From contig OX442314.1 in assembly GCA_949358305.1 (NCBI GenBank), positions 5,580,001 through 5,644,000 on the forward strand: 64,000 nucleotides of DNA, written 5' to 3'. The position numbers and the translations under genes were made by a program. This document shows, piece by piece, positions 4,210 to 52,662 of this stretch; the stretch's first letter is position 1, and every line of letters begins with the position of its first letter. Under the pieces are notes generated by a model. The model had not been told where the DNA came from, made no database searches, and was given only the letters and a program-made list of their open reading frames with translations. This DNA comes from Strigamia acuminata (taxonomy: Eukaryota).

Positions 4210-4594
4210 TTAATAGTTAAATCGATTATCCAAGCAGACTTTGAAGCAATTAAAACTGTTTACAATGAAAATATAGAAAGATAGTAATGACATTCCCAAA
4301 CCTGATCCTAGAATGCTGCCGATATCGCTTAACAATTGAGAGATTGGATATTTCTGTTTCTCTTCTATGTTCTCGGTGAAACTATCAGTGAATCGAATAG
4401 TTGCAACCGTGAAGAAATCAACTGCTAATTTAGCCCCATGGAAAATGGGTTGGTAAAATATATTTTCGCAAGGTTGTTTACATTTGCACTGTTTTTGATT
4501 CGAATCATAGTTCTTTAAGTATGTAAAATGAGAGATAGAAATATCTTTTGCGGTGTTACAGTCAGGCAAATTAGAAGTTACCATATATGGTAGT
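4210..4594 (-). CDS. Gene A exon 11: TM2 of repeat 2 and stop
   Basis: TTTCAG|LPYM...CKCKQPC...YPISQLLSDIGSILGSGLGMSLLSFYIF...NY*; GxS filter = GMS. Confidence 0.9.
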
Positions 4595-4769
4595 CTGAAA
4601 AATAAAAAGATCTAATTAATGAATTAAGAACAACAAAATGTGAAAATAAATAAAAATAAATGTGATAAAAGCAAATATAGATGTGTGAATTTGTAACCGA
4701 GCATGTTAACACGCAGCAATCTGCACTGAGGAGTGAATAAATTGAAAAGGTGTCAACCACTTATCATAC

Positions 4770-4879
4770 CTGCAGTTAATGCTTTGAAATAAATTGTTTT
4801 GCATGCAAGCGTTTTTACACATCACATAAGCAGTTTTGTTTTCTTCGCATGGATTGCGCTTGGTATTTCTTCGTACACT
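4770..4879 (-). CDS. Gene A exon 10 (repeat 2 thumb)
   Basis: AATAG|SVRRNTKRNPCEENKTAYVMCKNACMQNNLFQSINCR|GTATG; Cys spacing parallels exon 5. Confidence 0.85.
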
Positions 4880-4947
4880 CTATTTGATAAAATCAAGATT
4901 GGTATAAACTTGATGTACTGTAGTCTACATATTGTTTAATTAAATAC

Positions 4948-5043
4948 GTTAAATATTCGAAGTATTATTTCATTCGTCCAACCATATAATAAATCCAATG
5001 GTTCTAGAAGGTTCACTTCCTCTTCCTGGTTATTTAGGAATAA
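4948..5043 (-). CDS. Gene A exon 9 (repeat 2, equivalent of exon 4)
   Basis: TATAG|LFLNNQEEEVNLLEPLDLLYGWTNEIILRIFN|GTATTT; 96 nt, phase 0->0. Confidence 0.7.
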
Positions 5044-5248
5044 CTATATTAATAATATAGTACAAAATTAAGTGGCCTTGTGTGTCAGTTTTGGTTACTT
5101 AAAATTGATTTATTCAACTGAATGATAGTTAACCGAATGTAATTTGTAAAAAAAAATATTTCACAACCTACCAATACTATGTGGTGATCTCACTTTGTGG
5201 TGACCCAAAAAAAAGGAATGTTTGACACAAGAAGAAATTCTTAGCGTT

Positions 5249-6465
5249 TGTGGCGTCCTACTTTGTATAGGTTTAAATACTACTTAAGTGTGCTAACGTG
5301 GTTTACTTTACCTGTGATCGTTTATGTTAATACCCAAATAAATACTAAATGTATATGAAATGAACAAGGATTTATTCAATAGGCTTTTACGCCTTAAAAT
5401 ACACTCAGTAATATTCTATTGTATACTTTTTCCACACTCATTTTTGACCCTGGAAGCTGGGCTCCCATTGGCCGAGCCATTTCACCTGTGTAGTGATACA
5501 TAAAAGAAGACCGAAAACACCAGACTCAATACAAAATTCAAATAACATGTGCTTTCTAGACAAAGCAAGCACTAAAATGAAAAACAATTTGTTTTTAATT
5601 AAAAACACCATAAAACTATTTTTCAAAGATGGAAAACATGTTTTATTAGATAATAACATTGAATGTAAATAATTTCAAGCATTATTATTCAGGAATAGAC
5701 TAAAAATCATAAGGAACTACTTTTCCTCGTAGCAGTAGTTCCATTGCAGTTTTGAGTAATTGGACTAGGCCAATGGGAGCCCAGCTTCCAGGGTCAAGAA
5801 TGAGTGTAGAAAGAGTATAAAGTCGACTTGGTCAGAGTCGAACAAAGGATTTCTCAAGATGGCGTCTTCTGTTCCGTCAGGTCGCTGGAACAATGATGCC
5901 GTCTCGAGTAGTCGTTAATTCGTCGCGGATTCGTCGTTACGAACGCGGTGGAATGCTCAAAGAGTCTTCTATCCGTGTTGTCTACGGGTATGTTTTAGCG
6001 TCGCAGAGGCTTTGAGTCAGAACACGGGGCTCCGTACAAAGCGCTCGGACACTTGTTGGTGGGGAAATAATAACGGGGTGTTATTATTTCAGGTGTTTTC
6101 ACAAGTGCTATTTGTAGGAACAGCTCTCTTGTAAATCCGTGAGAGTTACAGTTGCACTTGGTTCAGCTGTCCTCTATCAATCCTAACTTATAGTTGAAGT
6201 TGGCCTGACGGTGAGGAAGTTGCTGTGTTCTTGGTGTCGTTTGTGAAGGTTCTGACTTTAGGCGGGAAACTCCACCTTTTATACAGTGGGGTTGGTGGGA
6301 ACGGTGTCATCCAATGGTGGCTGACCACCCGTCGCTCCACTCCCCTCGGGGCACACACCTGCTCGAAGGAGGCGGAGCCTACGCGAGGGAAACAACCCGC
6401 TTACTCGGGTGACTCAGATGAGAAGTATCTGCTCGGCGGGACACCTACCCATCTGGGTCACCACA
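5249..6465 (-). mobile_element. Solo LTR of a subfamily related to the Gypsy element at 34307, with an internal MITE
   Basis: TGTGGCG...CCACA flanked by 4-bp TSD CGTT; colinear with, but diverged from, the reverse complement of LTR 34307-35127. Confidence 0.85.
5422..5819. mobile_element. MITE with ~50-bp terminal inverted repeats inside the solo LTR
   Basis: TATACTTTTTCCACACTCATTTTTGACCCTGGAAGCTGGGCTCCCATTGGCC mirrored at 5768-5819. Confidence 0.7.
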
Positions 6466-6503
6466 CGTTGACCCCTTTTTGAGTCACCATAGAAAGGCTC
6501 ATC

Positions 6504-6575
6504 TGGAAATTCCATTGTTGCATTTTGGAAATTCCGTTGTTGCATTTTGGAAACTCCATTTTGCATTTTGAAACT
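6504..6575. repeat. Short tandem repeat (~22-bp unit TGGAAATTCCATTGTTGCATTT, ~3 degenerate copies)
   Basis: Direct inspection. Confidence 0.6.
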
Positions 6576-7374
6576 GGACAAGTTACTTCGAGTTATTGAT
6601 TGTAAGGCTTAAAGCCCTTGAATAAACTACTTTATTCCTTCTATATCTTGTAACAAGTATTATTTGGAGTAAACACAGATCACAGGTAAGTAAGACTAAC
6701 CACAAGAGTAACATCTTCTATAAGCTATTTAACAATACCGACAAAGGACGCAGCAACTTGTATTTTGATGCTTTAAGCATTAGATATGCAAAGGATTCAT
6801 AACCTCGATCAGAAAAGTTAACAGAAAGCAATGATACAAGTTCGCATCAATGTCATGGTGATATAAATTCTAGAAACAACTTAAAATGTTAAACTACGGA
6901 ATTTGTATCACCTTTTGGTTTCATGTAACTTAAACAATGATATTCTAATTAAGTGTTGAAGTGAAAAAGATTGAACCAACCCAATATTTAACGTACATAA
7001 AATTTTCTATTTTTGAAATATGTCGCCAGCTAGTGATAAACCCTTACATTAACTTTCCAAGTCATTTACAAGCAACTTAAGTTTAATGTAAATGTCTAAT
7101 TTACAGATGAAATTTAAGAAATGTGTAAATACTGTACAATGTTAATTTTCAAATTTCAATTTAATTTTCCAACAACTTTACAAAAACTGTAAAGCTTACA
7201 TTTACACATAAATTTTTGGAACATTTACAGTTCCTAAAGCCATATTTTCTCCAGTGGTAAAATTGTCACAAACTCAATTCTCATCAACTGGATTACTGGT
7301 CAACAAGAATTTAGTCAATTGGAACCTATCTTGACGAAATTCATGTGGGTTTCTGTTTATTGATTTTACCATAC

Positions 7375-7457
7375 CTTCATATGCTGGTAACACACTTCTG
7401 AAGGAAATAAGCGGTCAAATACAAATTCGAGGGGAACCATTTGGTTAGTTGTTTTTT
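7375..7457 (-). CDS. Gene A exon 8 (repeat 2, equivalent of exon 3)
   Basis: TTTTCAG|(E)KTTNQMVPLEFVFDRLFPSEVCYQHMK|GTATGG; phase 1->0 fits both neighbours. Confidence 0.65.
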
Positions 7458-7800
7458 CTGAAAAACAATGGAAAGATCTTTATCAATTTTCAAAAGTATC
7501 AGCAATTTTAATTACAGTTAAATACGGATTTGAAAAAAGCATTCGATTATTTTATGCACAATGGCCTTAAAATGAAAGAATGAACTTTACACGATTTTTG
7601 TCTAAAAACTGATTGTCCAATAGAATGATCGGGCTGATTGCTAATGTATATACAGTAATCTAGGAATAATTTGGGCAACCATTTCCAATTAGTCTAAAAT
7701 AAAACTTTAAAAAATTGCCAATTAATCCCATGCTGAAATGGTGGCAAATTAATAACCTCTTTAATTTTCCAAACCAAGCAATGTCATTAATGGGCTGGAC

Positions 7801-8068
7801 ACACAGGTTCAAATCCTGTTGTCTATGAAAGTTTTTATTTTTATTTTTTATTTACTTTTAGCAGTAATTTTAATGTTTGTAATTTTATATTTGTTAAAAA
7901 ATTAAAATTAATTGAATTAAAATTTTCTGAAAACAAATATAAAATTACAAACATTAAAATTACTGCTAAAAATAAATAAAAAATAAAGGTAAAAATTTTC
8001 ATAGACAACAGGATTTTAACCTGTGTGGAAAGATACCTAGTCCATTGCCTTAACCACTGGACCACCAC
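7801..8068. repeat. Foldback palindrome whose arm carries a tRNA-derived (SINE-like) head
   Basis: Arms 7801-~7895 and ~7930-8027 are reverse complements; minus strand GTGGTCCAGTGGTTAAGGC (A-box-like) and GGTT(C/A)AAATCC (B-box-like). Confidence 0.5.
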
Positions 8069-8920
8069 TACAAACTATTGTTGTCTTCATGAAGACAGTC
8101 ATGTTGGTGAACAAAGTTCTGATCATTGAATCTCAAATGATGAAATTACATCATTGAATGTCAAATGAAAAAATTCAACCTGGATCTTGGAACTATTTTT
8201 TACCTAGCAACAGTTGTTTACAATATTCCTCCGCAAGCCTAATTATTCCCAAAAGTGTACTATCACCATAGAAAGAGTCCAAATTTAATGTTTGATTTAT
8301 TTCTTTCTGCCTGTTCATGGCATAAAAACCTTTGGGCAGCTTATTTACCTGTTTGAGGTAAATAAATTCCTCAAAAATTGTGGTCATGACCGAAGAGTCT
8401 TATTGGTGCACTCCCCTTGTTAGTAGTGTGACAATGGGTATGCCACAGCCTCCATGAGTGGTTGCATGGAACATGCAGGTGAGTACAGCAGAATGTTGTT
8501 TTACCAACCTCGTCATACATGGGATTCTCACCGTGTGTGATGGTTCGGTTGCCGGTGTGGCTTGCCCTCATGGCACTACCAACACGCCGGGAGATGGGAG
8601 TCTCTAACCCCTAGACAAATGGATTAAAGGCCAACAACCAACAATCTGGAGTCTCTTGTCTTTCATTACGTGAGTATGCGTCCCAAACCATGGTAACCAG
8701 GTTAACCAGGCTGCCATGGCAACAACCATACCACTCAGTTAAAATGCCACAGGTGCAAAGAAGTGCCTTGTGTTGATTTCCAGACGGTAGAGGAGCTACT
8801 GTCACAGCAGCAGTTCAAAACAAATTTGTCACCTTGTCCCAAAAATCCCAAAAAATCCCAAATCACCCAACTTTACGGTATGTGTGTCTGTGAAATTACC
8901 TGCTGCAATTACATTCTTAC

Positions 8921-9005
8921 CTGAAATTATTTGTGAACAATGTCCAAAAGGGAGGGGAATAAGAGTTTTTGATGTGTTCAATACAGCTTTAAATCCACGA
9001 AAATA
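8921..9005 (-). CDS. Gene A exon 7 (repeat 2, equivalent of exon 2)
   Basis: TATAG|YFRGFKAVLNTSKTLIPLPFGHCSQIIS(G)|GTAAG; 85 nt, phase 0->1. Confidence 0.8.
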
Positions 9006-9064
9006 CTATAAACATCAAACAATTTAACATAATTTTCTTGTCGTGATTATATTTGAGAATATAC

Positions 9065-9160
9065 CTTATAAGATAACTGATCATCAAGAATGATTGTTTC
9101 GTGGACGTTGAGTTTGTTCCATATTTCTTCCAATGACAATTCGTTGCTGAACAATTGCCA
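9065..9160 (-). CDS. Gene A exon 6, 3' part (after the insertion)
   Basis: WQLFSNELSLEEIWNKLNVHETIILDDQLSYK|GTAT. Joins NNISP in frame when 9165-12687 and one TGGT TSD are removed; the paralog fragment at 24277 independently reads NNISPWQL. Confidence 0.85.
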
Positions 9161-9164
9161 TGGT

Positions 9165-12100
9165 TGTGACGGTGACGACCACAACTCCTATCGCATGATA
9201 GTACCGGGTATAAGTCGCGTGGAATAGTGAATAATACGAGATAAAATAAAGCCCAGGAGAAAAAGGTTCTGCAGAATTCTGCATGTTGTGCAGAAAAATT
9301 TTCTTCAGAAAAACTTACCAAATTCTGCAGAATTCTTCAGAAAAATGTTAACCTTTTCTGCAGAATATTTTCTGCAGAAAGCATTTTCTGCAGAAAAAAG
9401 TACCAAATTCTGCAGAATTCTGCAGAAAAATGTTAACCTTTTCTGCAGAATATCTGCAGAATTCTGAAAAAAAATAGATTTCCATACTTATACATTTACA
9501 AACTCAAATTTTTTTTCACCATATAAAGCCATTTAGTTTCTTTTAAAACCCATATTCAACAATTAGTTTTCATTGTTATTAGCACAAATTGCATGTTTTA
9601 TTAGTGAGTTTGCGGTTGCCAATTATTCCTTATAATTATGAGTTACAAGCTCATAATTATAATTATAATTCCTTCTTGAAATAGGCACTTGCGGTGCAAT
9701 AAATATATTTTATAAATTATACTTATAAATACCATGTAATGGTAGAACAAATCCCTATGCAAAAGAAAATGAAAATCTGTAGTTTTACTAATTTGACAGT
9801 TTTCAGACATGAAATTGTCTTCCAGTTTATTTATTTACTTACCTGGAATGATTTTAGTTGTTTCTATCCTTCGATGGCAGAAAGAAATTGTGATTGAGGC
9901 TGATTGTTGAAACAGGTCAGGCAGCCATTTTGAATTTGCATTAGCACCATCAGCGCCATTTGCAATAGTGGGAGGAGCTTCAAATAGTGTTACGCGATCT
10001 GATTGGCTCCCTTATTTTACAAAATAGTGTAAAAGTTGAGGAGTTACGTTATGTTATAAGTCCATTTTTATAATTATGAGCTTGTAACTCATAATTATAA
10101 GAAACAATTGGCAACCGCAAACTCACTATAGACATTTTTATTTATCTTTATTTAAATCTTTTAGTTTTTTTTCTTACCATGACCTCTGCTGGAATTGAAC
10201 CTGGGATCCATTGTTCTAAAGCCCAGTGCTCTATCCACTCGGCTTGTATAGCTTATACTATTGGAATGCATAACTTCTCTTATATAGTTACTTTTTCCGA
10301 AATGGTTTTAAATTTTCAAATAGTCTCAGCTTTAAATAAAACGTTTAAATAAATAAAGTTTAATTTAAAGAAGTTGTAAATGTTTATATGTGTATTAAAG
10401 AAACTAAATGCATCCATTCGGAAAATTTGATTTAAACTAAAAACAATAACTTCATCTTTTTGTTTAAAATTTCTGCGTAACTTTGCAGAAATGGAGAAGG
10501 AATAAATTCTGCACTTCATTCAGCGTCGAGGGGGTAGCCAATCGCAAAAATCCCGTACAAGATTCAATTTGAAATCCTTGAAGAGTTCATGAGATTTCAA
10601 GGATTTTGAAATCCAAAATCTTTGCCTGTACGAGATTTCCAACATTGGCTACCCTTTCGTTCGGCCTACAATTATTCTGCACAATTCTGCAGAAAAAAAA
10701 GATTTTCTGGCAAATTTTTTCGGCTGGCATTTTTTCTGCAGAATTCTGCAGAGAGAAAAAGATTTTCTGCAGAATTTTTTCTGCTGGCAAACTTTCTGCA
10801 GAATTCTGCAGATTCTTTTTACCTGGGAGACAACAAGTTTCTCAAAACACTACATTTATTGTTGTAAAACAATAGAATCAAATCTAAAAGTTATACATAA
10901 ACTAATGCCGACATTTGGCAAGTTAAAAGCACATTTAACTATACAATAAAATGGCCGAATGGCCCTAAAATAATAACATTACGGTTATTGGTGATCCTGG
11001 GTTCGGGAACGGCAAAACGCCCGCTCGACCGAGTTAAAAGATGTCATCTACGCGTAGCCGGGCTGGCTGTGTCCTCGCGGCTTCCGTCGGCGCTTCGTAA
11101 TCGTGGAACTGGTTCCTTCGCGTTCCGGGTTCGTATCGTGTAATGGTCCGTGTAATGCTGTTTGGTTCGATCCGAGAGGTGCGGTTGACTCATGTGCACC
11201 GCCACAACTAGGGTTGGAAATTGGTAATGAATAAATGAAGTCATTTATTCGCCAAGGTTCCGCTTGCGAATTATATTTAATTCGCGATGTTGTGAGTTTA
11301 ATAAATTAACTCAATAAATTATATTCAATTTATTGTTACGAATTTGATTCGTCATACAGTGAAATAAGTCTCGTGACTTACTTCGGTTGTTAACTTGTTG
11401 CCAAGTTTAAACAATTAAGGTGTATTTATCAACTACAAAATATAATAAAGGTTAAACATCGCAACACACAATTGCCGTCAAAGTTCGCCTTGCTGAGCAG
11501 AACAGTATCGCGCGTGCCCTAAATAACAGTGCGGTGAGAGACGGCACTGGTATTCAGGGGGATATAGCCCGCAGTTCTGCACAACAGAATTAATCACCCG
11601 AGATACTACTCATAAGTAGACTGCTTTGGCACCATCACCGAAGAGATATAACATTCCCAAACACATAGTGCTACTGGCGGTAACTGCATGTTTTGCATGC
11701 AGACTGCTTTGGCACCATCAGGTGATGGAGTCAATCTCTTGCAGTAACAGTGCTACTGACGGTTACTAAATACTTTGGTATCACACGTGATTCTATTGTC
11801 CGACCACGAGGATACTTATGCGGGAGGCTTTCTCCTCGGCAAGACCGTTTGACGGAAACATGAATAGTCCGAACTTCGCCTTCAGTTGACGGGGGTTGCA
11901 TGGCTCAGCAGAGATACTACCCGAGATGTTTGACACAAGAAGAAATTCTTAGCGTTTGTGGCGTCCTACTTTGTATAGGTTTAAATACTACTTAAATGTG
12001 CTAACGTGGTTTACTTTACCTGTGATCGTTTATGTTAATACCCAAATAAATACTAAATGTATATGAAATGAACAAGGATTTATTCAATAGGCTTTTACGC

Positions 12101-12687
12101 CTTAAAATACACTCAGTAATATTCTATTGTATACTTTTTCCACACTCATTTTTGACCCTGGTGGGAACTTTATACTCTTTCTACACTCACTCTTGACCCT
12201 GGAAGCTGGGCTCCCACCCGGTCCTACCGGACCATGCCCTGAGTAAGAAACGGCTATTTGACATGCGGAACATACCAAATAACCAGAAAACAAGACTAAC
12301 TTAACTTCCTGTTGTCAGGGAGTTTTATACTCGGTGGGATTAGGTTCCACCAATCTCGTATCGCAGGAAGTGGATACGGAGATGCAAATTGGGATTATGC
12401 TAATCTTTCAGCATAAACCGGAACTGGATACCGGGGACAGGAAATGGATACACAGAACGGAAATACATTCTGAAAATGGGTTTCGTGTCGCGCACCCGGG
12501 ATAAAGCAAGAATACCCGCTTTATCTTATTGAATATTGATAATATAACTTTATATTATCGATTTAGATTACATTTATTCGTAACAAACATAATAATATGT
12601 TTGTGAACTATTTCTGCGGAGAATAGTAAGTTCGAGGTTGAATTTGCCGCTAGTACTAGTGGCGCCATCTATTGCTAATTTGTCACA
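9165..12687. mobile_element. 3.5-kb non-coding LTR-like insertion (probable solo LTR) in gene A exon 6, with nested elements
   Basis: Termini TGTGAC...GTCACA; 4-bp TSD TGGT (9161-9164 / 12688-12691); removal restores the reading frame. Confidence 0.85.
9252..10827. mobile_element. Non-autonomous CACTA/EnSpm-like DNA transposon
   Basis: Termini CCCAGG...CCTGGG, 2-bp TSD AG, subterminal arrays of TTCTGCAGAA palindromes at both ends; degenerate tRNA-like head at ~10180-10245. Confidence 0.7.
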
Positions 12688-13375
12688 TGGTGATATATTA
12701 TTGAAGGATTTGTTAGTTTGTTTCACTAAATTCGATCTGGCTCCATCAATGTCATTATCTTGTGTTTCACCACAGACTGTGACAGACGGATATTTGGTAA
12801 AAGGTTGTGGAACTATTCTCACAATTTTTGTTGCCGGTTCTTCCATGTAGTAGTTTACACGAATTTGCAAGCAATACAATGTGATTCCCGAGCAAATTAT
12901 AACCAGAATTATCTTAAAATTAAGTGAAACTACATTTCTTTTAATTTGCTTTTGACTCTGAGTTATTTTCTTTCTGCATTTGTCATAAACTCGGTGAATC
13001 TTATTAACCGGTTTTTTTCTTCGAATGTTTGCTAGATACCAAGTGATTTCAGGCAACAAAGTTAAAGACAGACCGAGAAATAGGCCCAGATTGCCTCCTA
13101 AATCTGATAGTAAAGCAATAACATCATATGTGTACCGTTCTTCATACACGTTGATTTTATCATTAGTTATTGCTAACGATACGGATAAAGTGTTTTTATC
13201 ATCTGCTCGGCCTGCATCCGTGGATGGTATAAACATTAAATATTCACATGGACGTCGACATTGACAATCAGCAATTGGGTCGGTAGTTTCAATTAAACGA
13301 TTTGCAATACCATATAGTTCATGGGTGGTGTTTGAACATTTGCGAAGTGGTAAATCTATCTTTGTAAAGGGAAAT
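12688..13375 (-). CDS. Gene A exon 6, 5' part: TM2 of repeat 1, basic linker, TM1 of repeat 2
   Basis: One open frame: CQCRRPC...YDVIALLSDLGGNLGLFLGLSLTLLPEITW-(K/R-rich linker)-IILVIICSGITLYCLQIRVNYYMEEP...YPSVTVC...NNISP. Confidence 0.9.
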
Positions 13376-13444
13376 CTTGCAAAGAAGATTATTGATTAAT
13401 ATTTTGACTGTAGTTACTGTATAGAATATATTATGCATTCTTAC

Positions 13445-13551
13445 CTGCAAGTCAGATGTTTTTTAAATTTTTCCATTAAGCATGCACGGTAGCATTCTCT
13501 GTATTCGTTTTTGCTGGAACATGAACTCGTGGATGAATTGAGAAATATGAA
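13445..13551 (-). CDS. Gene A exon 5 (repeat 1 thumb, Cys-rich)
   Basis: TTTAG|FIFLNSSTSSCSSKNEYRECYRACLMEKFKKHLTCR|GTAAG; phase 2. Confidence 0.85.
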
Positions 13552-13612
13552 CTAAAATGTAAAAATTTATCGATATTGTGTGATAACTTTCAATTAAGAC
13601 TAAAAAATTTAC

Positions 13613-13705
13613 TTTGTTAAAACTCAAATTTATTTTTAATATTTCACCAAGCTTTGGTATTGTTACATCAAAGTGCCTGCCGAAATCGGAGAACGACATG
13701 AAAAG
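13613..13705 (-). CDS. Gene A exon 4 (repeat 1)
   Basis: TTAG|LFMSFSDFGRHFDVTIPKLGEILKINLSFNK|GTAAAT; 93 nt, homologous to 53942-54034. Confidence 0.8.
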
Positions 13706-13782
13706 CTAAGTAAAAATAAAAATAAAAATTTATAACAAAATTTTTATTTCGTGATTCATTAGTAATAATTTAGTATGCTTAC

Positions 13783-13874
13783 TAGGTATGGCGCAATAAG
13801 GCAAACATAATCATATTTATTTTCAATATTTATAGTCAATAATTTCCGAACCAACGATTTGCTAGTAGCTATAG
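13783..13874 (-). CDS. Gene A exon 3 (repeat 1)
   Basis: TTAG|(S)IATSKSLVRKLLTINIENKYDYVCLIAPYL|GTAAGC; 92 nt, homologous to paralog B exon 3. Confidence 0.75.
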
Positions 13875-13972
13875 CTAAATCCATAAATGAAATTTGTGTT
13901 ATCCACTAGGTTATGAATCATATACAGAGTATTGTATACTGTATATGATACTGTATGTCATGACTTATGACA

Positions 13973-14664
13973 TGTTGGATGTAATCGCACGCCACTACAA
14001 TACTTACTATTGTATATCTAAATCTATTGTTACATTAAATAAACCTCATTTTGCATGTATGTGCCGTTGCAATGAATATGTAGTATCGTGGGTTTTTCCT
14101 CATGAGGGATTCTGAAACATTCCACAACATGGGTTATGGGCCCAACATGATTTAAGAGCGGACAACATTTGATAAATCAAAATTAGAAGTCGGTGCCGCA
14201 GTTTATCACGTTTATTTCTCACGAAAAGAGGTACAAACAGGAAGATTCGAATAAAATGGCGGCCAAACTCGAACCCACCATTACTTACGTGAGAAGTTAA
14301 ATGGGCGTAATTACCCGACGTGGGAATATCGAGTGCGGATATTGCTCAAGTCAAGGGATGCGTGGTTCGTGATCGTTGATGATGTGCCAATTAAAACTCT
14401 AGGCGAAACCGATGATGCCTTCAAGGTAGGAGTTAAAGAATGGACGACCAAGGACGTTGAAGCGTTGAATATAATTTTGCAAACGATCGACACTGCTCAA
14501 CTACGGCACGTGTTGAACCACGACACGGCAAAGGCGGCTTGGAACGCACTCAAGACTGAGAATCAGGGTGAAGTTGCAGAATTGAAAGTCCAAAAGCGGG
14601 TCGGGCTTGCGCATATTCGAATGAAACCAGCGGAGACGGTGGCGACGTATCTGGATCGGATGAT
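13973..14664 (+). mobile_element. Truncated, degenerate Copia (short LTR, half-tRNA PBS, frameshifted gag start)
   Basis: LTR TGTTG...CAACA 13973-14129; GGTTATGGGCCCA at 14132-14144; gag-like EKLNGRNYPTWEYRVRILLKSRDAW...TAKAAWNALK. Confidence 0.75.
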
Positions 14665-14953
14665 ATTTTCCACGAGATTACATTGACACTCCCCCTGGCG
14701 GTGGAGAGCCTCAAACGGGATTTGTACATCAGATGAAAGGTGACACAAATTAAAACAACAGTAACGTTTGTATAACAAAATGGCACTTGAACAAACAGGT
14801 TCAAGCACATTGTTGTATTTAAGTGGATTAAGTTAGAATAAAGAATTGTGACCGCTTGGCCACCCACGGTGAACTGCGTCACTCCACACACCGCCCAGTG
14901 GCCCTAAGACCGTCCACCTTCGCAGGGTGGACTGGCCCACCTAGGGAAGGATG

Positions 14954-17900
14954 TGTTAGGTTGACGTTTTCCTGTTTGTCCTCGCATCCGCGTAGATCAT
15001 CGGATTGCATATTGTGGATAAATGCAATCAGTGTGTTGCCATGTTGATGTCCCGTATTGCAGTCGGTTGATTCTGGTTTTTAATCCCAATGCTGGTTTTG
15101 TACCGCAACCGACTCCTATTACGTGACAACACACACAACCTGTCATCTGCTCAAATGAGCACTTATTGTTTATGTTGTTCTGTTTGTTTTATCCATTAGT
15201 TTTGTCTTTCTGTAAAGAACAAGTCAGTGTATTGAAACAATGATTTGTTCTATGATTTCATTGTGTTTGAGATCGAGGGCGATTAGCCTCGAACCAGGTT
15301 TTATGTTACACACATACTTTTGTAATAAAAGATGGCGGACGCGTGTCCGATTTATCCGCCCAGCCAAAATGATGTTTCCGAGTTATTTCGACAGCGCACA
15401 GGCCATTGCAACTCTTCAAAGTGGTAGCAGAGGGTAAAAACGGTCTGGCAACGATGTTTTTGAAGAAGAAACGGCCATTTTGCGACTACGAGAAGTCGCC
15501 GAGTGTGCGCCCGCCCAGCTCGTCGTAAAAACGAGTTTTTGGTGCGGATTTCATCGCGGAACTTATCGTGGATTCGTGTGCGGAGTTTACAACGAGGTTC
15601 GAGTGTTTTTGTGAACGTTTCCAGCACGGAAAATACGTGTTGTCAACGTCCCGACGTCGTGGGAAAAAGCGACGATCGGATTTATCGTGTTTCGAGATTT
15701 CTGCAAGTGCGTGCGAATCCCGGCGCTTTGTAGGAATTTTCTACGGTGTTGTGTGCCCAACTAGACACACTATTGGATTACCAAGGACGGTAGGAACAAT
15801 TGTCGATTTTATTTTTGGCGAAATAAGCCATTTTTTCAAACGAATCCACGCCCGATGAAATCCAAGATGGCGGCGGCCATCGTTCATCGTGTCTGCGCTT
15901 GAACACGGACGTTTTCAAGCAGTTTTGGGATATCCAGCGCTGGAAATTAACAACGTTGGACACCATTAGAACCGTGGGAAGGATATCCGACAATCGGCGG
16001 AATTTTCGAAGCGTTATTTACGTCGCTTCGACGAATTTCGAGCGACGAGCGAACGTTTAGCAAACGAGACGAGTTTGCCGACGATTTCAAGAGGAAACCC
16101 TGGTTTTGCACATAGGGTGCACCAGTTGAGAGGGATTCTCCTCACATTAGCACCCCGGCGTGCGTGTGAGTTAATTCGACGGCGACGAGGTGGCATACCG
16201 TCATTTTTCCCTCGTTTTGTGCGACGTGCGCATACGAGAAGGCACGTCAGCCCATTTCCGTGCAGGATCAACGTTTTGCGGCGTGGGATCTCATCACGGA
16301 AGCCACCTTCACACCGACAGTGTACATTTATTTATTATCTCGTGAAACTCTGTTAGTTTTAAGGTTTTGTTGTGGTCCCCTGTTAGAATCGGTGCTACCC
16401 TACGTCCAGTCGGGCACGTAGCACTGTATTCTTGGCTAGGCTTATCCACGGCCACCCAACCATCCCGCGGGCCCCAGGAGGCGCGAACGGAAGAGTTGGG
16501 GGATTGCTAGTCAAGGTTTTTCAATCTCACTTATTGAGATTCCCCGGGTTGTGTGCATTATTCGCCTTCAATTTTGGGGGAATTCTGCATCCGTGCGACG
16601 AATTTACGTGGTTTGTGTAACTTGTGCTTCGGTTCTTCACTAAATTTCGTCGCAAATTTCCCGAAATGGCGTCCTACGACCGCCATGATGATTACAAGGA
16701 CGTGAAAAAGTTGGACGGAACCAACTATCCGACCTGGAGCGTACAGGTACAGCTCCTCCTCCAATCGTACGGTGTTTGGGGCCACGTGACCGGCAAGACA
16801 AAAGAGCCGCCGGCCGGATCACCGTTTCGAGAGACAAGGGATTTTGAGAAAGGCGAAGAAAGGGCCCGCTCCACCATTTGTTTGGCTTGCGGCGAGGCCC
16901 AACAGGTCGTGGCGGTTGCCCAGGCCACTGCTAAAGAAGTGTGGGAGGCACTGAAAGCTGCCTACCAGCCCACGACCCGGGCACGCAAAGCCCGTCTTCG
17001 CAGGGAATTTTTAGACATGCGGTTGCATGAAAACGAAGAGATGTTTGTTTTCACCGCACGTGTTGATCGGAAAGTAGTACAGCTTGCAGATGTCAAGATT
17101 CAAATTTCTGATGAGTTTCACGCCTTTCAATATCTTGACCTGCTGCCACCCCAATACGAACCGGTCAAGCAGACGGTTTATCACTGGGGTGACACAGAGT
17201 TCACGGCAGCAGCGGTCAAGGAACGCCTGGTAGGCGAATACAACCGCCTACATGTAACAACCGACGAGTTTGGCGTGCCTTCCAAGGCGCCATTGGAGAA
17301 CACTGGTGCCTTCTTTAACCAAGGCGGAAGACAACGCGGACGTGGTGGAAATGCACCCGGCGGCCCACGCATCTGTTTTACTTGCGGTGGGACGGGCCAC
17401 TTCGCCCGTGAATGCCCTACTCCACCGAAACAGCAATTCCAAGCAAAAGGAAACCAAACTGGACAATTTAGAGGCAATCCACGGGGCAAGGGACGTGGAA
17501 GAGGCCAGCAAAAGGCCACTGTCACACAGGCTGACATATTCAGTGACTCTCCAGTCTCTTATTACTCCGCGGCGATTTGGCTTCAACAACAACCCCCTGT
17601 GCCGGCTTCCCACGTGTCTCACGCGAATTATGATTCGCAATGGTACGTCGACACAGGGGCGACGGACCATTTCTCCTTCAACAAAGACTGGTTCTCCGAC
17701 TTCAAGCCATTAACTGGCCACGTGCAACAGGGAGAAGGAAAGTCGAGAATCGAAGGAATAGGAAATGTGACGTTGACATCGATTTATGGAACCCGCACCC
17801 GTGCAATTACATTGCATAATGTATTTTATGCACCCAACTTTAGGAAGAATTTGATTTCGTTGGGTCGCACGGATGAAGCTGGGGCAACGACCATGATTAA

Positions 17901-20900
17901 AAATGGCAAAATGGTTATTTATAACGACAAAATTGATGACCCTTCCATCACTGCGGAACGCACGAGTGATCGGATGTATAAGGTCAATTGTCGTATTTCC
18001 CCTGTGAACACTGCCGCATTACCTGCGCAACAGGCTGCGACAGTGTCTCCTAGTCCGCTTATAAAAGGCGATGAAGTTGTAAATTCGATACTAACATACC
18101 CTAGTTTTAAGGACGCATTAACCCAAAATTCGAGTGAGTCAGGGAAACCTGCACCAGCGATAAAGGGGCAAGCGAGTGTTGCGAACAACGCGCCTGCGAA
18201 TGTTACGACTAATGCGCAAGCGAATGTTTCGAATAAAATTAAGGCAAAGATTGCCAATGCCTCTAAGGAGGCAGGTTCAATTGTGCAGAACAATGCAGAC
18301 ATAGCAGAGAATGGAAAAAATTCTACTAATGGGGTTAAAACTTTTGACAAGAAAGATAAGGCTCAAACGATGGACATTTGGCACTCCCGCCTAGGGCATT
18401 TAAATGCAAAGGGAATTGCGGGATTAGAAAAGTCAACTGATGTTTTTGGGCTGAAACTCTCGAATAAGGAGTTGTCGACGTGTGACTTTTGCGCCAGGGC
18501 GAAGAGTACACGTGCTAGTTTTCCCCCAATAATTGGAATTACGACAAAAAGCATTTTGGAAATAGTACACTTAGACGTGTGGGGCCCCGCTCCAGTTCAA
18601 ACATTGGGTGGGGCATACTATTATCTCATTCTCATCGATGATTTTTCCCGTTTTATGTGGATAATTATCATGAAACGGAAAAGTGACGTTTTAGGACATT
18701 TCAAGCGGTGGCTACTTGAAGTTGAGCGAACGACCTCTAAGAAGGTAAAGGCCATAAAAACCGATAATGGAGGGGAATTCATATCTAGACAATGGGACGC
18801 TTATGTGGCGACAATTGGGCTTAAGTGTATGAGGACTAATGCATACAGCCCAGAAATGAATTCGGTCGCCGAACGGGCGAACCGTACCATTCTTAATGGT
18901 ACTCGGGCACTTCTTTTTGAGAATAAATTTCCCGCCACTTTATGGGCAGAGCTTGCTGTTTCAGTTGTATATCTGAAAAACCGTTTTCCACATACGGGAA
19001 TTGGGGGAAAAACACCTTATTCTGTGTTTTATGATAAGAAATTGTCCCTTCGCCATGTCAAGTGCATTGGCTCATTGACTTATGTCCATATCCCAGCTCA
19101 GACTCGGGGTGGGAAATTACAAGACAGGGCATGGGCTGGGGCATTAATTGGATATGCCGCTTCTACACGCGGCTACAGAATTTGGGATCCAAATAAAAAT
19201 CAGGTGTTTTTGTCTAAACACGTCAAAATTTTTGAAAACAATTTCTGGTTTGAATTGGGGACGGTTACGTCGCCTGAATTGGAGAATGACTTTGATACTT
19301 CGAGTTCGGACTCGTTCAATGGGTCATTTTCTGACGACGACAGTGTTGTCGGTGACCCAATTCCGGCGGAAATCCCGGAACCCCCTCCTGCGATACAGGA
19401 GGTTCCACAACCTGCTCCGCAGCAGAAAGTGAAACCCGCATTGCCCACGACCCCAAAGCCTACTCTTAGACCTGAATTGAGGCCAGTCGCTAAACAGGCA
19501 GCTCAGCAACCCCCACTTATACCCGTTGAGGGGAACCCTATTCTTGGGGATAGGGAAACAGGGGATGAGCCTGTTGAAGAAATTGGTGGGGCGAAGGGGG
19601 ATGATGGGAATTACTTCAACATCTATCCTGACAATGATGGGGAACCTGAAATTCCTCCTGGGATTCAAACACGGCGTGGATCACGATCAAAGAAAAAGCA
19701 AGGGAACGTGATGTTACATCCGGAACTACTGCCGTTAAACATGGCGGAATGGGAACGACGCGCATCCGTCCGTAAAGACGGAGCGACGGCGGGACAAATA
19801 GATGTTGTTTACATCACGCCCTTAAAGGATAAGATAAGAAGTCGAGTTGACATCGCACGGTGGTGCGATGAAGAAGGGTACGCATATGATGCGACCTTAT
19901 TTGACTTTAAGACATTAGAGGGGGACGGTGAACCGTTAGGGTTTGCAGGTTTCTGTGCCGTCGAGCCAGAAACCTACGAAGAAGCCATGTACCACATCAA
20001 GCGTCCTGATTGGATAAAAGCCATGAGAGAGGAAATTGATGTGTTCGATGAAAGAACGGTTTACAAGGAAGTTGACAAAACAACTTTAGATGAGGGTACG
20101 ACTCTCTTGGGATCGAAATGGATATACAAAATGAAGCGCGACCACACGGGTGTTATCCAACGCTATCGAGCCCGACTCGTCGCACAGGGCTTTAAGCAAA
20201 AGCCCGGAGTTGACTTTACGGAGGTGTTCTCCCCCGTCGTCAACTTCGTGCTAGTGATAGTGTTCTTCTGCACTTTGGTGATACTCAAGGGATGGCGGGA
20301 TTTACACCTGGATATCAAGGCCGCGTACCTTTACGGGGACCTCGATACGGTACAGTACATGGAGATCCCCAAGGGATATCGTACCGCCCATAATAAGCAT
20401 AAATGCTGGATGCTTTTAAAAGCACTTTACGGATTACACCAGTCCGGTCGTATGTGGTACCAGGTCCTCCACATACGACTACTTGAATTGGGCTTTCAAC
20501 CGTTGTTGGGTTTAAACTGTGTCTATGCCCTAGACAACGATGCAATAGTCATCTTTTACGTGGACGATATCGTGTTGTTTTCCAAGGATGACTATGTGGA
20601 ACAATGCGTTTTGAAGTGGTTACGGGAATCGTTTGAAGTAGTGAGTCTGGGGCCCGTAACTTTACTTTTAGGAATTGAGTTTGATAGGTCCGGGGGCATG
20701 ATTAAAATCCACCAACGGAAATATATTGAAAAGCTTTGTAAAGCGTACGGGATTGACTCGTGCCATCGAGTAAAGGTTCCAGTAACCCCGGGAACCATGA
20801 TTCAAGGTGTAAGAACCGGGGAAAAAGCCGACACCTCATTCCCGTACAGATCTCTGGTCGGAAGTCTGTTGTTCATCGCCAGCCGAACCAGACCCGACAT

Positions 20901-21986
20901 ACTGTTTTCAGTAATAGTGCTTTCCCAGTATAACGAGACGCATTCGACGCGCCATGTCAATATGTTACTGCAGGTCCTGCGATATTTGGCCACCACGTCG
21001 AATTATTCGATTAACTTATCGAACTGTAAAAACGAGAATTTGACAGTTTACACCGACGCGTCGTTTGCCCTAGATCAAGACAGACGACGAAGCTTTGGGG
21101 GACATATTGTCTATATGGGTGGCATTCCCATCTCGTGGAATTGCCACAAACAATCGATGACCTCCCTGTCGATCATGGAGAGCGAATTTCTCGCCGTGGT
21201 CGATGGGGTGAAAGAAGTTATTTGGCTCGAGCGCCTTTACGACGCGAAGATAATGTTTTGTCTCGAGCGAAATACGCCCTGTGTTTTTGCGGATAGCCAG
21301 CCGGCTATCCAATACTGTAAGAATAGGATCGAGAACAGGGCAAATAAACATATAGACGTGAAGCTCCATTTCGTTAGAGATTGGTTTGAGAAAGGAACGT
21401 TTTTGATCGAGCATGTTTCCGGCGAATTAAATGTCGCGGATATTCTGACGAAATGGTTAGCTAAATCCAGATTGAACGCGCTATGCGAATACATCTTTGT
21501 AATTGACAAATAGCTAAACGAAGGGGGATTTGTTAGGTTGACGTTTTCCTGTTTGTCCTCGCATCCGCGTAGATCATCGGATTGCATATTGTGGATAAAT
21601 GCAATCAGTGTGTTGCCATGTTGATGTCCCGTATTGCAGTCGGTTGATTCTGGTTTTTAATCCCAATGCTGGTTTTGTACCGCAACCGACTCCTATTACG
21701 TGACAACACACACAACCTGTCATCTGCTCAAATGAGCACTTATTGTTTATGTTGTTCTGTTTGTTTTATCCATTAGTTTTGTCTTTCTGTAAAGAACAAG
21801 TCAGTGTATTGAAACAATGATTTGTTCTATGATTTCATTGTGTTTGAGATCGAGGGCGATTAGCCTCGAACCAGGTTTTATGTTACACACATACTTTTGT
21901 AATAAAAGATGGCGGACGCGTGTCCGATTTATCCGCCCAGCCAAAATGATGTTTCCGAGTTATTTCGACAGCGCACAGGCCATTGC
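14954..21986 (+). mobile_element. Copia LTR retrotransposon 2 carrying an MBD-like domain (CopiaMBD type)
   Basis: 5' LTR 14954-15418; PBS TGGTAGCAGAGG 15422-15433; PPT ~21516-21528; 3' LTR 21531-21986 matches the 5' LTR but lacks the last 9 nt; intact polyprotein. Confidence 0.95.
16666..21513 (+). CDS. Copia gag-PR-IN-MBD-RT-RNaseH polyprotein (1615 aa from ATG 16666)
   Basis: KLDGTNYPTW; CFTCGGTGHFAREC; WYVDTGATDH; WHSRLGH..CDFC; HLDVWG/TDNGGEF/AER; MBD-like segment; RARLVAQG, YVDD; ADILTK. Confidence 0.95.
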   Translation: MASYDRHDDYKDVKKLDGTNYPTWSVQVQLLLQSYGVWGHVTGKTKEPPAGSPFRETRDFEKGEERARSTICLACGEAQQVVAVAQATAKEVWEALKAAYQPTTRARKARLRREFLDMRLHENEEMFVFTARVDRKVVQLADVKIQISDEFHAFQYLDLLPPQYEPVKQTVYHWGDTEFTAAAVKERLVGEYNRLHVTTDEFGVPSKAPLENTGAFFNQGGRQRGRGGNAPGGPRICFTCGGTGHFARECPTPPKQQFQAKGNQTGQFRGNPRGKGRGRGQQKATVTQADIFSDSPVSYYSAAIWLQQQPPVPASHVSHANYDSQWYVDTGATDHFSFNKDWFSDFKPLTGHVQQGEGKSRIEGIGNVTLTSIYGTRTRAITLHNVFYAPNFRKNLISLGRTDEAGATTMIKNGKMVIYNDKIDDPSITAERTSDRMYKVNCRISPVNTAALPAQQAATVSPSPLIKGDEVVNSILTYPSFKDALTQNSSESGKPAPAIKGQASVANNAPANVTTNAQANVSNKIKAKIANASKEAGSIVQNNADIAENGKNSTNGVKTFDKKDKAQTMDIWHSRLGHLNAKGIAGLEKSTDVFGLKLSNKELSTCDFCARAKSTRASFPPIIGITTKSILEIVHLDVWGPAPVQTLGGAYYYLILIDDFSRFMWIIIMKRKSDVLGHFKRWLLEVERTTSKKVKAIKTDNGGEFISRQWDAYVATIGLKCMRTNAYSPEMNSVAERANRTILNGTRALLFENKFPATLWAELAVSVVYLKNRFPHTGIGGKTPYSVFYDKKLSLRHVKCIGSLTYVHIPAQTRGGKLQDRAWAGALIGYAASTRGYRIWDPNKNQVFLSKHVKIFENNFWFELGTVTSPELENDFDTSSSDSFNGSFSDDDSVVGDPIPAEIPEPPPAIQEVPQPAPQQKVKPALPTTPKPTLRPELRPVAKQAAQQPPLIPVEGNPILGDRETGDEPVEEIGGAKGDDGNYFNIYPDNDGEPEIPPGIQTRRGSRSKKKQGNVMLHPELLPLNMAEWERRASVRKDGATAGQIDVVYITPLKDKIRSRVDIARWCDEEGYAYDATLFDFKTLEGDGEPLGFAGFCAVEPETYEEAMYHIKRPDWIKAMREEIDVFDERTVYKEVDKTTLDEGTTLLGSKWIYKMKRDHTGVIQRYRARLVAQGFKQKPGVDFTEVFSPVVNFVLVIVFFCTLVILKGWRDLHLDIKAAYLYGDLDTVQYMEIPKGYRTAHNKHKCWMLLKALYGLHQSGRMWYQVLHIRLLELGFQPLLGLNCVYALDNDAIVIFYVDDIVLFSKDDYVEQCVLKWLRESFEVVSLGPVTLLLGIEFDRSGGMIKIHQRKYIEKLCKAYGIDSCHRVKVPVTPGTMIQGVRTGEKADTSFPYRSLVGSLLFIASRTRPDILFSVIVLSQYNETHSTRHVNMLLQVLRYLATTSNYSINLSNCKNENLTVYTDASFALDQDRRRSFGGHIVYMGGIPISWNCHKQSMTSLSIMESEFLAVVDGVKEVIWLERLYDAKIMFCLERNTPCVFADSQPAIQYCKNRIENRANKHIDVKLHFVRDWFEKGTFLIEHVSGELNVADILTKWLAKSRLNALCEYIFVIDK

Positions 21987-22410
21987 TGAGTGGTGTGGTG
22001 AGAGAGACGGAGCCAAGGAAGCAGAGAGGACAAACTTAGAGTCAAGTTGAGAGATTCAAGTAAAGGCATGAAGGTGCTGACTCTGCTCTTCTCACCATTC
22101 ACCACTGTGACGCTCAGTAACATGGCGATGTGCCTGTTGCAGCCTCCATGAGCAGACATATGGGTCGTACTGGGTAAGTACGACAGAATGTCTGTCAGTG
22201 ATCGACCACATCACCCATGGGGTTCAGGCCCTGTGTGTGACCAGTCTGTTGTTGATGTAGCGTGCATAACAGCACTGCCACACATGGATAGATGCTTAGT
22301 TGTTTTTTTTGTTTTTCATTTCAAACAATTCATACAAACTTAAACATGGATTATTCCAATATTAAGACCTGCACCACTATACATAGTAAATGTTTTATGT
22401 TTATAGTTAC

Positions 22411-22483
22411 AAAATTTAAATGTTGAGCATATTCCATATGAAGTGTCAGTTTCTGTCAGTGCAACCGTTTTGTTTGAAAATCC
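22411..22483 (-). CDS. Gene A exon 2 (repeat 1)
   Basis: TTCAG|GFSNKTVALTETDTSYGICSTFKF|GTAACT; 73 nt, same length as the paralog B exon. Confidence 0.8.
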
Positions 22484-22546
22484 CTGAATAAATCAAATTT
22501 AAGTTAAATTCAATCTTTTAATTTTTAAAAATGACTTATTTTTTAC

Positions 22547-23041
22547 CTTCATTTTTGTGCTGACAATCTCTTTGGTTAAATTGGTCGCTCTCCAAAGTTC
22601 ATCCATATTATAAGTTGGAATTTTCATCAGACGTTTCATCATGTTTCCACATTCATAGTTGGGGGAATACAGATCATCCACAACATTTGTAAAAGTTTTA
22701 TTCCAAAGCCTGACCATTTCTTTCGTGTTACAACTACAGATCATCAAATTTGGTAACACAATATCTTCCGATTTGCTCATTACGTCAACAGCCGTAGGAT
22801 AACTTAAGTAATGCATTACTCTATCGTAGGTCTGATAAGTGAGCATGCATGTGCAAAATAGGAGCAAAATTAGCCAAAATATATGACGTCTGCTCCAATG
22901 TTTTCTACTGCTTACGAAATCATCCAGACCAATTAAACTGCAGTTTGGTTTTTTGGCGTCATCTTTTATCACACGTTGAATTTCTGTGCGTAGTTTTCTT
23001 AATCTTCGCATATTTCTTACCATCAAGTAATTTTTCTGCAT
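22547..23041 (-). CDS. Gene A exon 1: N-terminus, TM1 and beta1-beta2 of DEG/ENaC repeat 1
   Basis: NCSLIGL...RRHIFWLILLLFCTCMLTYQTYDRVMHYLSYPTAVDV...LPNLMIC; donor AAG|GTAAAA, phase 0. Confidence 0.85.
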
Positions 23042-24318
23042 TATACTGCTGTATTTTCTGTACTTTAGGCCACACCACAGCTGAGTTTAGACTTGTCTCT
23101 TTTCGTCTGTTGGCTATAATGTCTTATTTCCCCTGATAACGGTTTCCATGACGATTATTGATTCATTTAAGCTTATTTCTTGCTAAAGCGGCTGTATAAT
23201 GTAGACGTTGGGCGGTGATTGCATTTTAAATCGTGTTCTCTTTATCGTCAATTTTGATCTGAGAATGTATATCGGTCATGGTTCACACCCAATGACCTAT
23301 ATATTTCTTGGTAACGTTACTGAATAATTTAGATGTTGTTCATATAATTACGTTCCGCACACACTGCTTGAAATTTCATATTTACAAAATTTAAATGTAA
23401 GTAAATATGAAGTGTAAATTTATATTTAACGCGTTAAGTAAATATAATGTTAAATGTATGTTAAATATGAACGCAAAAGTTATATTTAATTCATATTTAC
23501 CTATAGTAAATTTAATTTATGCGAAAGTTATATTTAATTCATATTTACTTACAGTTAATTTAATGATACTAAAAATAACAATATGGTTTGCCTCGACGAG
23601 TCCGATCGCCGACACTTCCGCCGCCTACAGACACCCGTTTGCCACTTGAATAATGGCTGAACGCAGAACAAATTGACATATAATTTTTTTTTGCCTTATG
23701 TTCGGCTACGCGTCCACTCGCCCGCCTGCCCTCGTCCCTACAGCTGCCTGAAACGTCCATACAGTCGCCCGCCCGCCCACCCTCGTCTGTCCACTCCTAA
23801 GTGGAGAAATTTGTTGACCATTTACAGGAAGTTACGTGAAACAGAGAGAAGGTTGAAACTAAAATTTTACTTTTTAAATGATTGAAAATGGTTAAAAATG
23901 CAAATAATTTGTCATGTTTTTTTTTGCTTTTTTGGGTCAAATTGGACGTTCTTTCTCAAATTCGGATTGAAAACACGAGGAAGTGGTCAAAATATAAGAA
24001 ATATTCGTGTAAAATGTGAATAAAATTCCTTTTTAAGCCGAATTTTGGTTGAAATGATAGAAATTGATGCCAATTATTATCAAATGTATAATAAAAAAAT
24101 TTATTTTCTCACGAAGTGTAACGAAATTCACTAAAATTATTCAAATTATTCAAATTTCTTTTGTAAAACGCTGGAAATGCGAATAAATAAACTTATTTCT
24201 GCATTTTTGGGCAAAATTTCTGACAATTTGTGACAGAACTCAACAAAAAATTCGTATTTTCGGCCATTTTTGTGTTAAAACTAACAGGACCTGCAACAAC
24301 ATATCACCGTGGCAATTG

Positions 24319-29194: not shown

Positions 29195-29792
29195 AATTGT
29201 TCAACAACAATTTATGATTTGATGAAATCTGGGAAAAAATCAACGTCCACGAAACAGTCACACTTAATAATGAATTAGCTGATAAGGTATATTTCTTAAT
29301 ATAACCATGGCTAAAATATTATATTAAATTATTTAATATTTATAGTATTTTCGTGGATTAAAAACAATGCTGAATGCATCAAAAAGTCTTATTCCCCTTC
29401 TTTTTAGACATTATACACAAGTAAATTCAGGTTAGTTTTAATGGGGCCGAAATTCTCACGTTTATTCATCACATGAGATGCAAAATTTATCAAGTGCAAC
29501 AGGGGAAAATCAGTTTTCACACTTATTCATCATTGCAGCTGTGGAATAAGCCTGAAAACTGTCTTTTTCCTGGGTTTCTCTACTGGTATTTACCGGTATC
29601 AAAAACCATTATTTTTAAGAAAATACCCAATACCGAATACCGTCTTTAGTTCGATATTGGTACCGGTTTCTTCAGTTAGGGGTCGCTGCGATAGTGGCAT
29701 TTATAATGGACGTTGAATGGCATTTTTTTAAACATAAAAATGCGAAATTATCGATTTTTTAACTTAAAAATGTGAGTTTTTCGATTTTTATA

Positions 29793-44720: not shown

Positions 44721-44738
44721 ATTCAGCTTCGTCTGCGC
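44687..44738 (+). promoter_or_regulatory. -1 programmed ribosomal frameshift signal (gag->pol)
   Basis: In-frame slippery heptamer A AAA AAC 44687-44693, 6-nt spacer, stem GCGCAGGCG...CGTCTGCGC; the -1 frame is open from here into pol. Confidence 0.8.
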
Positions 44739-48823: not shown

Positions 48824-49199
48824 AAATAAAAGAAAATGTGATAACATGGAGCGGAGGCCTTGTAAAATAAAAAGATTTACTTACGAGAGCTGCTGCACAT
48901 GTTGAGACGCGAAAATTTGGCTAAGTCCAAACTTCGCAACGAATTGTCGCAGTCACCACTAACAGACGAGAAGTTATGACGTATCGGGCGACCACGTGAC
49001 AATAAAACCACGCGGTCGACCCCGTAGCGTCATTGCCAGCACGGCGGATCTCGCAAAGTACGAGACGCGTTCGAGACCCACAATTCTCAGCGTCGATAGG
49101 CCCAGTTTCCGACTGTTTTTAACACGACGAGACGCGTTTTTTGCTTCTCCCCAAAGAGAAAACAAAGACCTCTCAAAAACTTCATTTTCCTAAATTGAA

Positions 49200-52100: not shown

Positions 52101-52662
52101 CTCTCCTTCGCCACCAGCGGCAGAGCTGGCCGCTCTTGCAACAGAGCCGGCTACGCCACCGTTGGAGAGTCCAATGGAGATTCCACTTCCTCCATCGCCT
52201 CCGCCGCCCCCAGCAGCGCAGCTTTATTTGAGGCTGGGAGTGGAATACCCCTTCCTTCAGATGTCGGAGTTCACGCGACAACGCATCATTGACTCCGATG
52301 ATCACGGCGAGTCGATCCTCAAATGGCTGACCAGAGAGGCCCGATCTACCATGGACGCCGTCTTCCATCGTCGAATCTTGCGAGCCCACCGGAAACCCGG
52401 ATCGAGCGCCGAGTCGCGAAGGATCCGGCTCGTTCCCGACCGATTCCCGGCATCCACCCGGATTTGGATCCACGAACGTACGGGGCTGATTGGCGAGCCG
52501 GTCGGCGGTCACCCGCAGTACTTCATCAACGAGCGACAGAATCCTGCGGATCTGACAACCTCTCTGCCCCCGGATTTACCACCGCCGCCCCCGGCAGTGC
52601 CACCAGTGATCCTCCGCCCATGCAGAGGAGTGCTGCCGGCTCTTCGCAGAGGAGAGCGATAA
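49200..52662 (+). CDS. Gypsy accessory ORF3, probably spliced (49200-49316 + 49876-52662, ~967 aa), function unknown
   Basis: 885-aa ORF intact in both element copies; frame open upstream to acceptor TTCAG| at 49875; upstream ATG exon ends CAG|GTAAAT in phase 0. Confidence 0.75.

Follow-up and report, generated by a model that had tools for sequence, protein, structure and literature searches.

A young Copia retrotransposon with a methyl-CpG-binding domain that has valine at the conserved tyrosine position

What does a methyl-CpG-binding domain (MBD) do within the polyprotein of a retrotransposon, and does it still read methylated DNA when one of its conserved contact residues has been replaced? 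The question is raised by an element in a window of 64,000 nucleotides (the whole stretch of DNA analyzed here), which is marked as Copia by its LTRs, an RVT_2 domain, and an integrase ahead of the reverse transcriptase (RT). A stop-free frame of 1630 codons on the forward strand (16621-21513) follows the Copia domain order, the gag-pol product being arranged as Gag, CCHC knuckle, protease, integrase, SH3, linker, MBD, RT, and RNase H (Table 1). The primer-binding site is presumably complementary to the 3' end of the initiator Met tRNA, and we take Asp652, Asp715, and Glu751 to be the D,D(35)E residues of the integrase core. The linker between SH3 and MBD is likely disordered, going by its composition; the hydrophobic stretch that follows the MBD is common to MBD-bearing and MBD-less relatives and is the likely site of integrase/RT cleavage. 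Over 456 nt the two LTRs do not differ, thus the insertion is very recent, and the element is recognizable as a young Copia LTR retrotransposon. Its description as intact in the original prediction holds for the unbroken ORF and the identical LTRs, but not for the right end, where 9 nt are missing from the end of the 3' LTR; no target-site duplication was found at the ends of the element, and we infer a small deletion across the 3' junction.

Table 1. Coordinates of the element, its insertion target, and the host gene within the 64-kb window.
Feature	Position	Strand	Details	Basis
Host ASC (DEG/ENaC) channel gene	4213..23086	-	element antisense in its intron	
Multi-copy short repeat (insertion target)	14847..14951 (left part), resumes ~21985 to 22320	.		
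5' LTR	14954..15418	+	465 nt, TG...CA	
Primer-binding site	15422..15432	+		sequence
Untranslated leader	15433..16665	+	~1.2 kb, CpG-rich: 9.0 CpG per 100 nt, o/e 1.49	
Single gag-pol ORF	16666..21513	+	1615 aa from first ATG	
Integrase	18379..19251	+	HHCC region, D,D(35)E core, SH3 domain	Pfam
SH3-MBD linker	19261..19725	+	Pro/acid-rich: 155 aa, 26 Pro, 27 Asp/Glu	
MBD	19729..19911	+	residues 1037-1097 of the stop-free frame	Pfam
MBD codons	19771 (Arg), 19801 (Asp), 19807 (Val for Tyr), 19837 (Arg)	+		
Hydrophobic stretch ahead of RT start motif	19933..19980	+		aligned rows
RT and RNase H	19960..21510	+	YVDD at 20557	
Polypurine tract	21520..21528	+		
3' LTR	21531..21986	+		

The identity of the domain is supported by sequence profiles and by a structural model. 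Pfam family PF01429, with a gathering cut-off of 21 bits, matched residues 1042-1097 of the full polyprotein at 34.3 bits (E 1.8e-8) and the excised segment at 39.6 bits, and the Pfam domain order places the MBD in frame between SH3_retrovirus (804-877) and RVT_2 (1158-1389), with no stop in the ORF. A segment of 80 aa scored 46.7 bits on a profile made without it; in the chance control, the top score from 2000 shuffles (1355 reported) was 8.6 bits, and the reversed segment gave -1.9. Across the six frames of the window, the segment was the sole match under E 0.3. Among PDB sequences, it matched 28 to E 0.1, including solved structures of MBD1, MBD2, MBD3, MeCP2, and MBD4. The alignment-based AlphaFold2 model (29-row alignment) had a pLDDT of 86, and its top Foldseek matches were all MBD domains (MeCP2, MBD4, and MBD2, probability 1.00), with rmsd of 1.2-1.6 A over 56-57 columns against MBD4 and MeCP2; this model depends on the alignment, since a single-sequence fold of the segment had a pLDDT of 47 and gave no MBD. 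As modelled, the segment has the MBD fold, with a beta-sheet and helix wedge, two arginine fingers, and their Asp. In the alignment with PDB chains, Arg1051, Asp1061, and Arg1073 correspond to R22, D32, and R44 of MBD1 (the arginine fingers and their Asp), which we take to be R111, D121, and R133 in MeCP2 numbering, whereas Val1063 aligns with the conserved Tyr of MBDs. The core Trp, the Cys, and Phe-x-Phe are kept as well as all three contact residues. The original prediction, which had called an MBD at this position in the integrase-RT interval, with Arg, Asp, and Arg retained and Val at the Tyr123 position, was therefore right on each of these counts, and the Pfam profile check that it proposed yielded a significant match, with a structural match of the model in addition.

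MBD-carrying Copia elements, termed CopiaMBD, have been reported with the same architecture in Strigamia and Stegodyphus (de Mendoza, Pflueger and Lister, 2019; PMC6673714, cited throughout from the accessible parts of its text and tables), in agreement with the mention of such elements in centipede and spiders in the original prediction. As a homologue query, the MBD region alone found no relatives among 369 candidates; a query of MBD plus RT succeeded, and the best 120 of its 578 matches were used. The tree of RT and RNase H (RH) was built from 118 of 122 proteins, four being dropped as too short in the RT. Among the matches listed, the element falls inside a 39-row clade (SH 99) in which all 39 rows contain an MBD or its remnant, the weakest with single E values of 0.018 and 0.38, whereas none of the 79 rows outside the clade scored under E 0.7 on the family MBD profile. 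With 38 chosen rows, IQ-TREE supported the clade at 100/99 and a nine-row subclade at 100/100. The 100/99 clade includes P0015, a protein of Stegodyphus mimosarum with an MBD that agrees by eye with the spider rows of PMC6673714; the RT phylogeny with published CopiaMBDs that had been suggested thus groups the element with this spider protein, in a tree that contained no Strigamia RT. The link to Strigamia is drawn instead from the integrase-tail/SH3 part of P0132, a CopiaMBD fragment named as Strigamia maritima, for which P0002, P0001, and P0003 were the three best matches among the stored proteins; in the SH3-region tree (support 82/88), P0001 and P0132 both fall within an open group of 16 rows. 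RT/RH identity to any database relative is at most 49% among the matches listed. The element almost certainly belongs to the CopiaMBD family as a new member with an architecture already published.

Relatives of CopiaMBD were also observed in Araneus ventricosus (P0032, P0035, P0036, and P0042 are proteins of A. ventricosus or Trichonephila clavipes), and T. clavipes has a truncated remnant with E 1.2e-8 on the family profile. The 2019 study scanned the Nephila clavipes genome too and, in its accessible text, reports matches only in Strigamia and Stegodyphus (PMC6673714); the family is thus wider than published, with relatives in A. ventricosus and T. clavipes. A literature search that reached a minority of subscription journals found the name CopiaMBD in no paper other than PMC6673714; from 2020 on, 10.1101/2021.11.30.470311 merely cites the 2019 work in its accessible part.

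Contigs in runs X1-X3 bridge position 14951 to 21985/21988 with few letters between, therefore the target of the insertion was a multi-copy short repeat, which sits in an intron of the opposite-strand ASC channel gene. Element contigs exceed flank contigs in depth by a factor of about 13 to 50 (5041 vs. 107-110 in X1, 888-950 vs. 35-69 in X3); depth is no copy number and is taken only as a sign that the family has many copies. The two 150-nt flanks of this one insertion site contain 4.0 and 2.0 CpG per 100 nt, compared with 5.8 in the window, where the CpG o/e of 1.16 is not evidence on host methylation because young transposons make up most of the window. The flanking ASC exon has its two best matches in Strigamia maritima (one protein at 59% over 98% of the query, E 2e-76; the other at 47%), the remaining three of five matches having E 7e-4 or worse in a search limited to proteins of 395-2000 aa. 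The host is therefore likely a centipede related to Strigamia, which bears out the myriapod part of the hint at a myriapod/chelicerate host in the original prediction.

On the reverse strand of the same gene region, one frame at 12574-13395 spans the end of one ASC (DEG/ENaC) unit and the start of the next, which suggests a tandem two-unit channel gene; this junction is also present in two S. maritima gene models, and an ASC paralogue lies on the forward strand from about 33565. The gene cluster is occupied as well by MBD-less Copia, BEL, and Gypsy elements. A second Copia (24319-29197, forward strand), which has no MBD and is flanked by a 5-nt target duplication, falls outside the CopiaMBD clade in the RT/RH tree, has an ORF that stops inside RNase H, and breaks into an ASC-like exon fragment. 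A fragment of another Copia (14130-14690, forward strand), with a primer-site-like motif and a truncated gag, is located just left of the target repeat. Two copies of a Gypsy element (34305-53528, forward strand; 55325-64000, reverse strand) are 97-98% alike, and in both an extra Pro/Arg-rich ORF after pol is open (49861-52662, 933 aa), for which no Pfam family and no usable Atlas match were found. From 38090, the Gypsy contains a nested BEL/Pao element whose LTRs are identical, and 44-nt tandem units form an inverted, MITE- or foldback-like pair at 30561-30899.

As far as the sequence goes, what sets the element apart is the Val at the Tyr position. In Table S3 of PMC6673714 (all 73 rows, by eye), Tyr is found in 22 of 22 CopiaMBD rows, a count for that table only, so that a Val-bearing Strigamia copy could be among the other published sequences; the three CopiaMBD domains tested by DAP-seq all have Tyr. 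The same study describes the methyl-reading Tyr as conserved in "most" CopiaMBD copies, hence as typical rather than defining. Among the matches listed, Tyr is present in 38 of the 39 Copia-borne MBDs collected (Phe in the remaining one), and Arg1, Asp, and Arg2, all kept by the element, are retained in 36, 36, and 34 of them, respectively; this set omits three repeat proteins that are no MBDs, one fragment, and exact duplicates, holds six derived rows apart, and counts P0152 as Copia by likeness alone. The Val is common to the high-depth family and is no private error: a contig of depth 4338 reproduces 19729-19829 without any difference, Val codon included, and the identical Val codon also occurs in the unaligned end of another deep contig (depth 3188, about 80% alike; one contig, by eye). 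A literature search found no experiment on a Tyr-to-Val MBD, and MeCP2 Y123A gave nothing relevant.

We give slightly better than even credence to a reading in which the MBD stays on the integrase and tethers the integration complex to methylated CpG with weaker affinity. The protease would cut between integrase and RT at the hydrophobic stretch, between the end of the MBD (1097) and the start of the RT (1114), so that the MBD would cap a Pro/acidic integrase tail of 155 aa. From there the MBD would tether the integration complex to methylated CpG DNA, and the exchange of Tyr for Val would lower the affinity, so that insertion would be steered to methylated DNA more weakly than in relatives; the predicted weakening follows from the loss of a conserved residue. 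The targeting domains of Ty1 and Ty5 are located in the integrase tail. Ty1 has a long disordered C-terminal module there (PMC8487063, accessible part). Published work on MBDs indicates that the arginines form stair motifs reading mCG (PMC3315304), that the Tyr gives a water-mediated contact and is not strictly required, and that MBD3, with Phe, still binds mCG, its F34Y mutation lifting affinity about tenfold (10.1101/338061). Since the arginines read mCG and the Tyr is dispensable in these accounts, the likeliest reading is a methyl-CpG tether of reduced affinity. Compared with the Phe of MBD3, Val departs further from Tyr, as both the ring and the hydroxyl are lost, and the sole support found for a moderate effect of ring loss is a simulation of MBD1 Y34A.

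The published family is consistent with such a tether. Three Strigamia CopiaMBDs bind methylated CpG-dense DNA in DAP-seq, insertion biases are described in both published hosts, and epigenetic targeting by the MBD, as proposed in the original prediction too, is an existing hypothesis for the family, its role in integration being stated as unproven (PMC6673714). Most transposons are methylated in Strigamia maritima (PMC7343188, accessible part). Against tethering count the single observed site of the element, which is intronic with CpG-poor flanks whereas Strigamia CopiaMBDs are enriched between genes (PMC6673714), and the MBD-less elements that share its gene cluster.

The strongest competitor of the weakened methyl-CpG tether is that the MBD is a general tether to DNA or chromatin that is blind to CpG methylation (or reads TG), in a branch that would be drifting from methyl reading. 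It would suit the Val found where 38 of the 39 listed relatives have Tyr, an exchange that requires two base changes in a codon common to the high-depth contigs. In a sister clade (P0005-P0009 and P0019, support 100/100), an MBD-like domain missed by the Pfam search stands in the same place (97% in profile-profile comparison); its six members all keep Arg1 and have all lost Asp and Tyr, five of the six have lost Arg2, and the Tyr position is Arg in five of six. Ile or Val is also found at this position in three host proteins of Drosophila, Tribolium, and Daphnia (PMC6673714, Table S3, by eye), and the flanks of the observed site are CpG-poor. However, a single insertion site is no sample, and the element retains the two arginines together with the Asp holding Arg1 in place, the carriers of methyl recognition (10.1101/338061; PMC3315304); we therefore regard a methylation-blind tether as unlikely.

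Distinctly less probable is a domain that binds methylated DNA and acts outside target choice, either freed to compete with host MBDs or on the methylated leader of the element itself. Such roles are listed as possible in PMC6673714, the leader is CpG-rich with 9 CpG per 100 nt, and the 155-aa linker could contain a second protease site. The conserved hydrophobic stretch before the RT, however, is downstream of the MBD, the extended C-terminal module of Ty1 is likewise part of the integrase tail (PMC8487063), and insertion biases occur in both published hosts (PMC6673714).

It is very improbable that the MBD is a decaying relic and the Val a first step of neutral loss, as might be read from the long branch of the element in the MBD tree (1.06) and from a relative at single-copy depth in which Gly replaces Arg1 and Glu occupies the Tyr position. 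The element has lost none of the core residues (Trp, Cys, and Phe-x-Phe) and none of the three contact residues, and changes in the domain are mostly synonymous, although the counts are small: 3 of 3 listed MBD differences in near-identical high-depth contigs (two of them in the X3 contig that spans the whole MBD), and 11 of 15 listed changed codons in the low-depth relative (17 of its 32 differences listed). In the protease-integrase linker, by contrast, 4 of 6 listed changes are non-synonymous.

An independent capture of the MBD from an MBD1-like host gene is hardly credible: human MBD1 is the top PDB sequence match (42 vs. 33 bits for MBD2) and a profile of 30 host-type MBDs scores 69.7 against 53.3 for one of 39 Copia MBDs, but the profile score of 69.7 is circular because the host set was chosen by likeness to the query, and the location of the MBD as in the RT relatives, the helix Cys (37 of 39 Copia MBDs vs. 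4 of 30 host-type), the GATAG loop shared with Strigamia CopiaMBDs (PMC6673714), and the MBD tree, whose few columns resolve origin weakly, point to Copia MBDs, so this candidate was set aside. The four host-type MBDs with the Copia-typical helix Cys (P0141, P0142, P0153, and P0156), one of which is a BTB-HMG-MBD protein, may offer a lead toward the donor family of the domain.

The low-depth relative and the six sister polyproteins have lost contact residues, thus the methyl-reading residues appear dispensable in this branch. We tentatively consider, as a rather doubtful proposition, that a centipede CopiaMBD branch is retuning or abandoning methyl reading while still spreading. If so, the Val family, the relative without Arg1, and the sister clade with its rebuilt DNA face would form a natural series of reader changes, along which a captured reader of epigenetic marks would shift in what it reads and hence in where the transposon lands. 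PMC6673714 leaves undecided whether integration is steered by the MBD; here, a young multi-copy family with a naturally altered reader shares one small genome with Copia, BEL, and Gypsy elements that have no MBD, and this coexistence would make it possible to compare insertion sites within that genome against a methylome.

The closest known systems are the CopiaMBD elements of Strigamia maritima and Stegodyphus, which share with the element the Copia domain order, with the MBD in frame between integrase and RT (PMC6673714). The element falls in one RT clade with that of S. mimosarum and has kept the Asp and the two arginines, and its likely host is a centipede, as for the Strigamia elements. 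The element differs in its Val, its MBD is by eye near none of the rows of Table S3, and its methyl binding is a prediction, whereas three Strigamia members bind methylated DNA in DAP-seq (PMC6673714). Human MBD3 (Phe34) likewise keeps the arginine fingers while the Tyr is replaced, and serves as a model of weaker but retained mCG binding (10.1101/338061, accessible part); it is a host NuRD subunit in which Phe retains the ring, whereas the present domain belongs to a transposon and its Val has no ring. In chromoviruses, a C-terminal integrase chromodomain is proposed to steer integration (PMC6673714), and the element also has an epigenetic reader at the integrase tail. Chromoviruses are Gypsy elements that read histone methylation, with targeting experimentally shown, whereas the element is a Copia with a reader of DNA-methylation type; Pfam found RVT_2 and the MBD in it, and no chromodomain. 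By analogy, the element may resemble chromoviruses in its working, while it is no member of that group.
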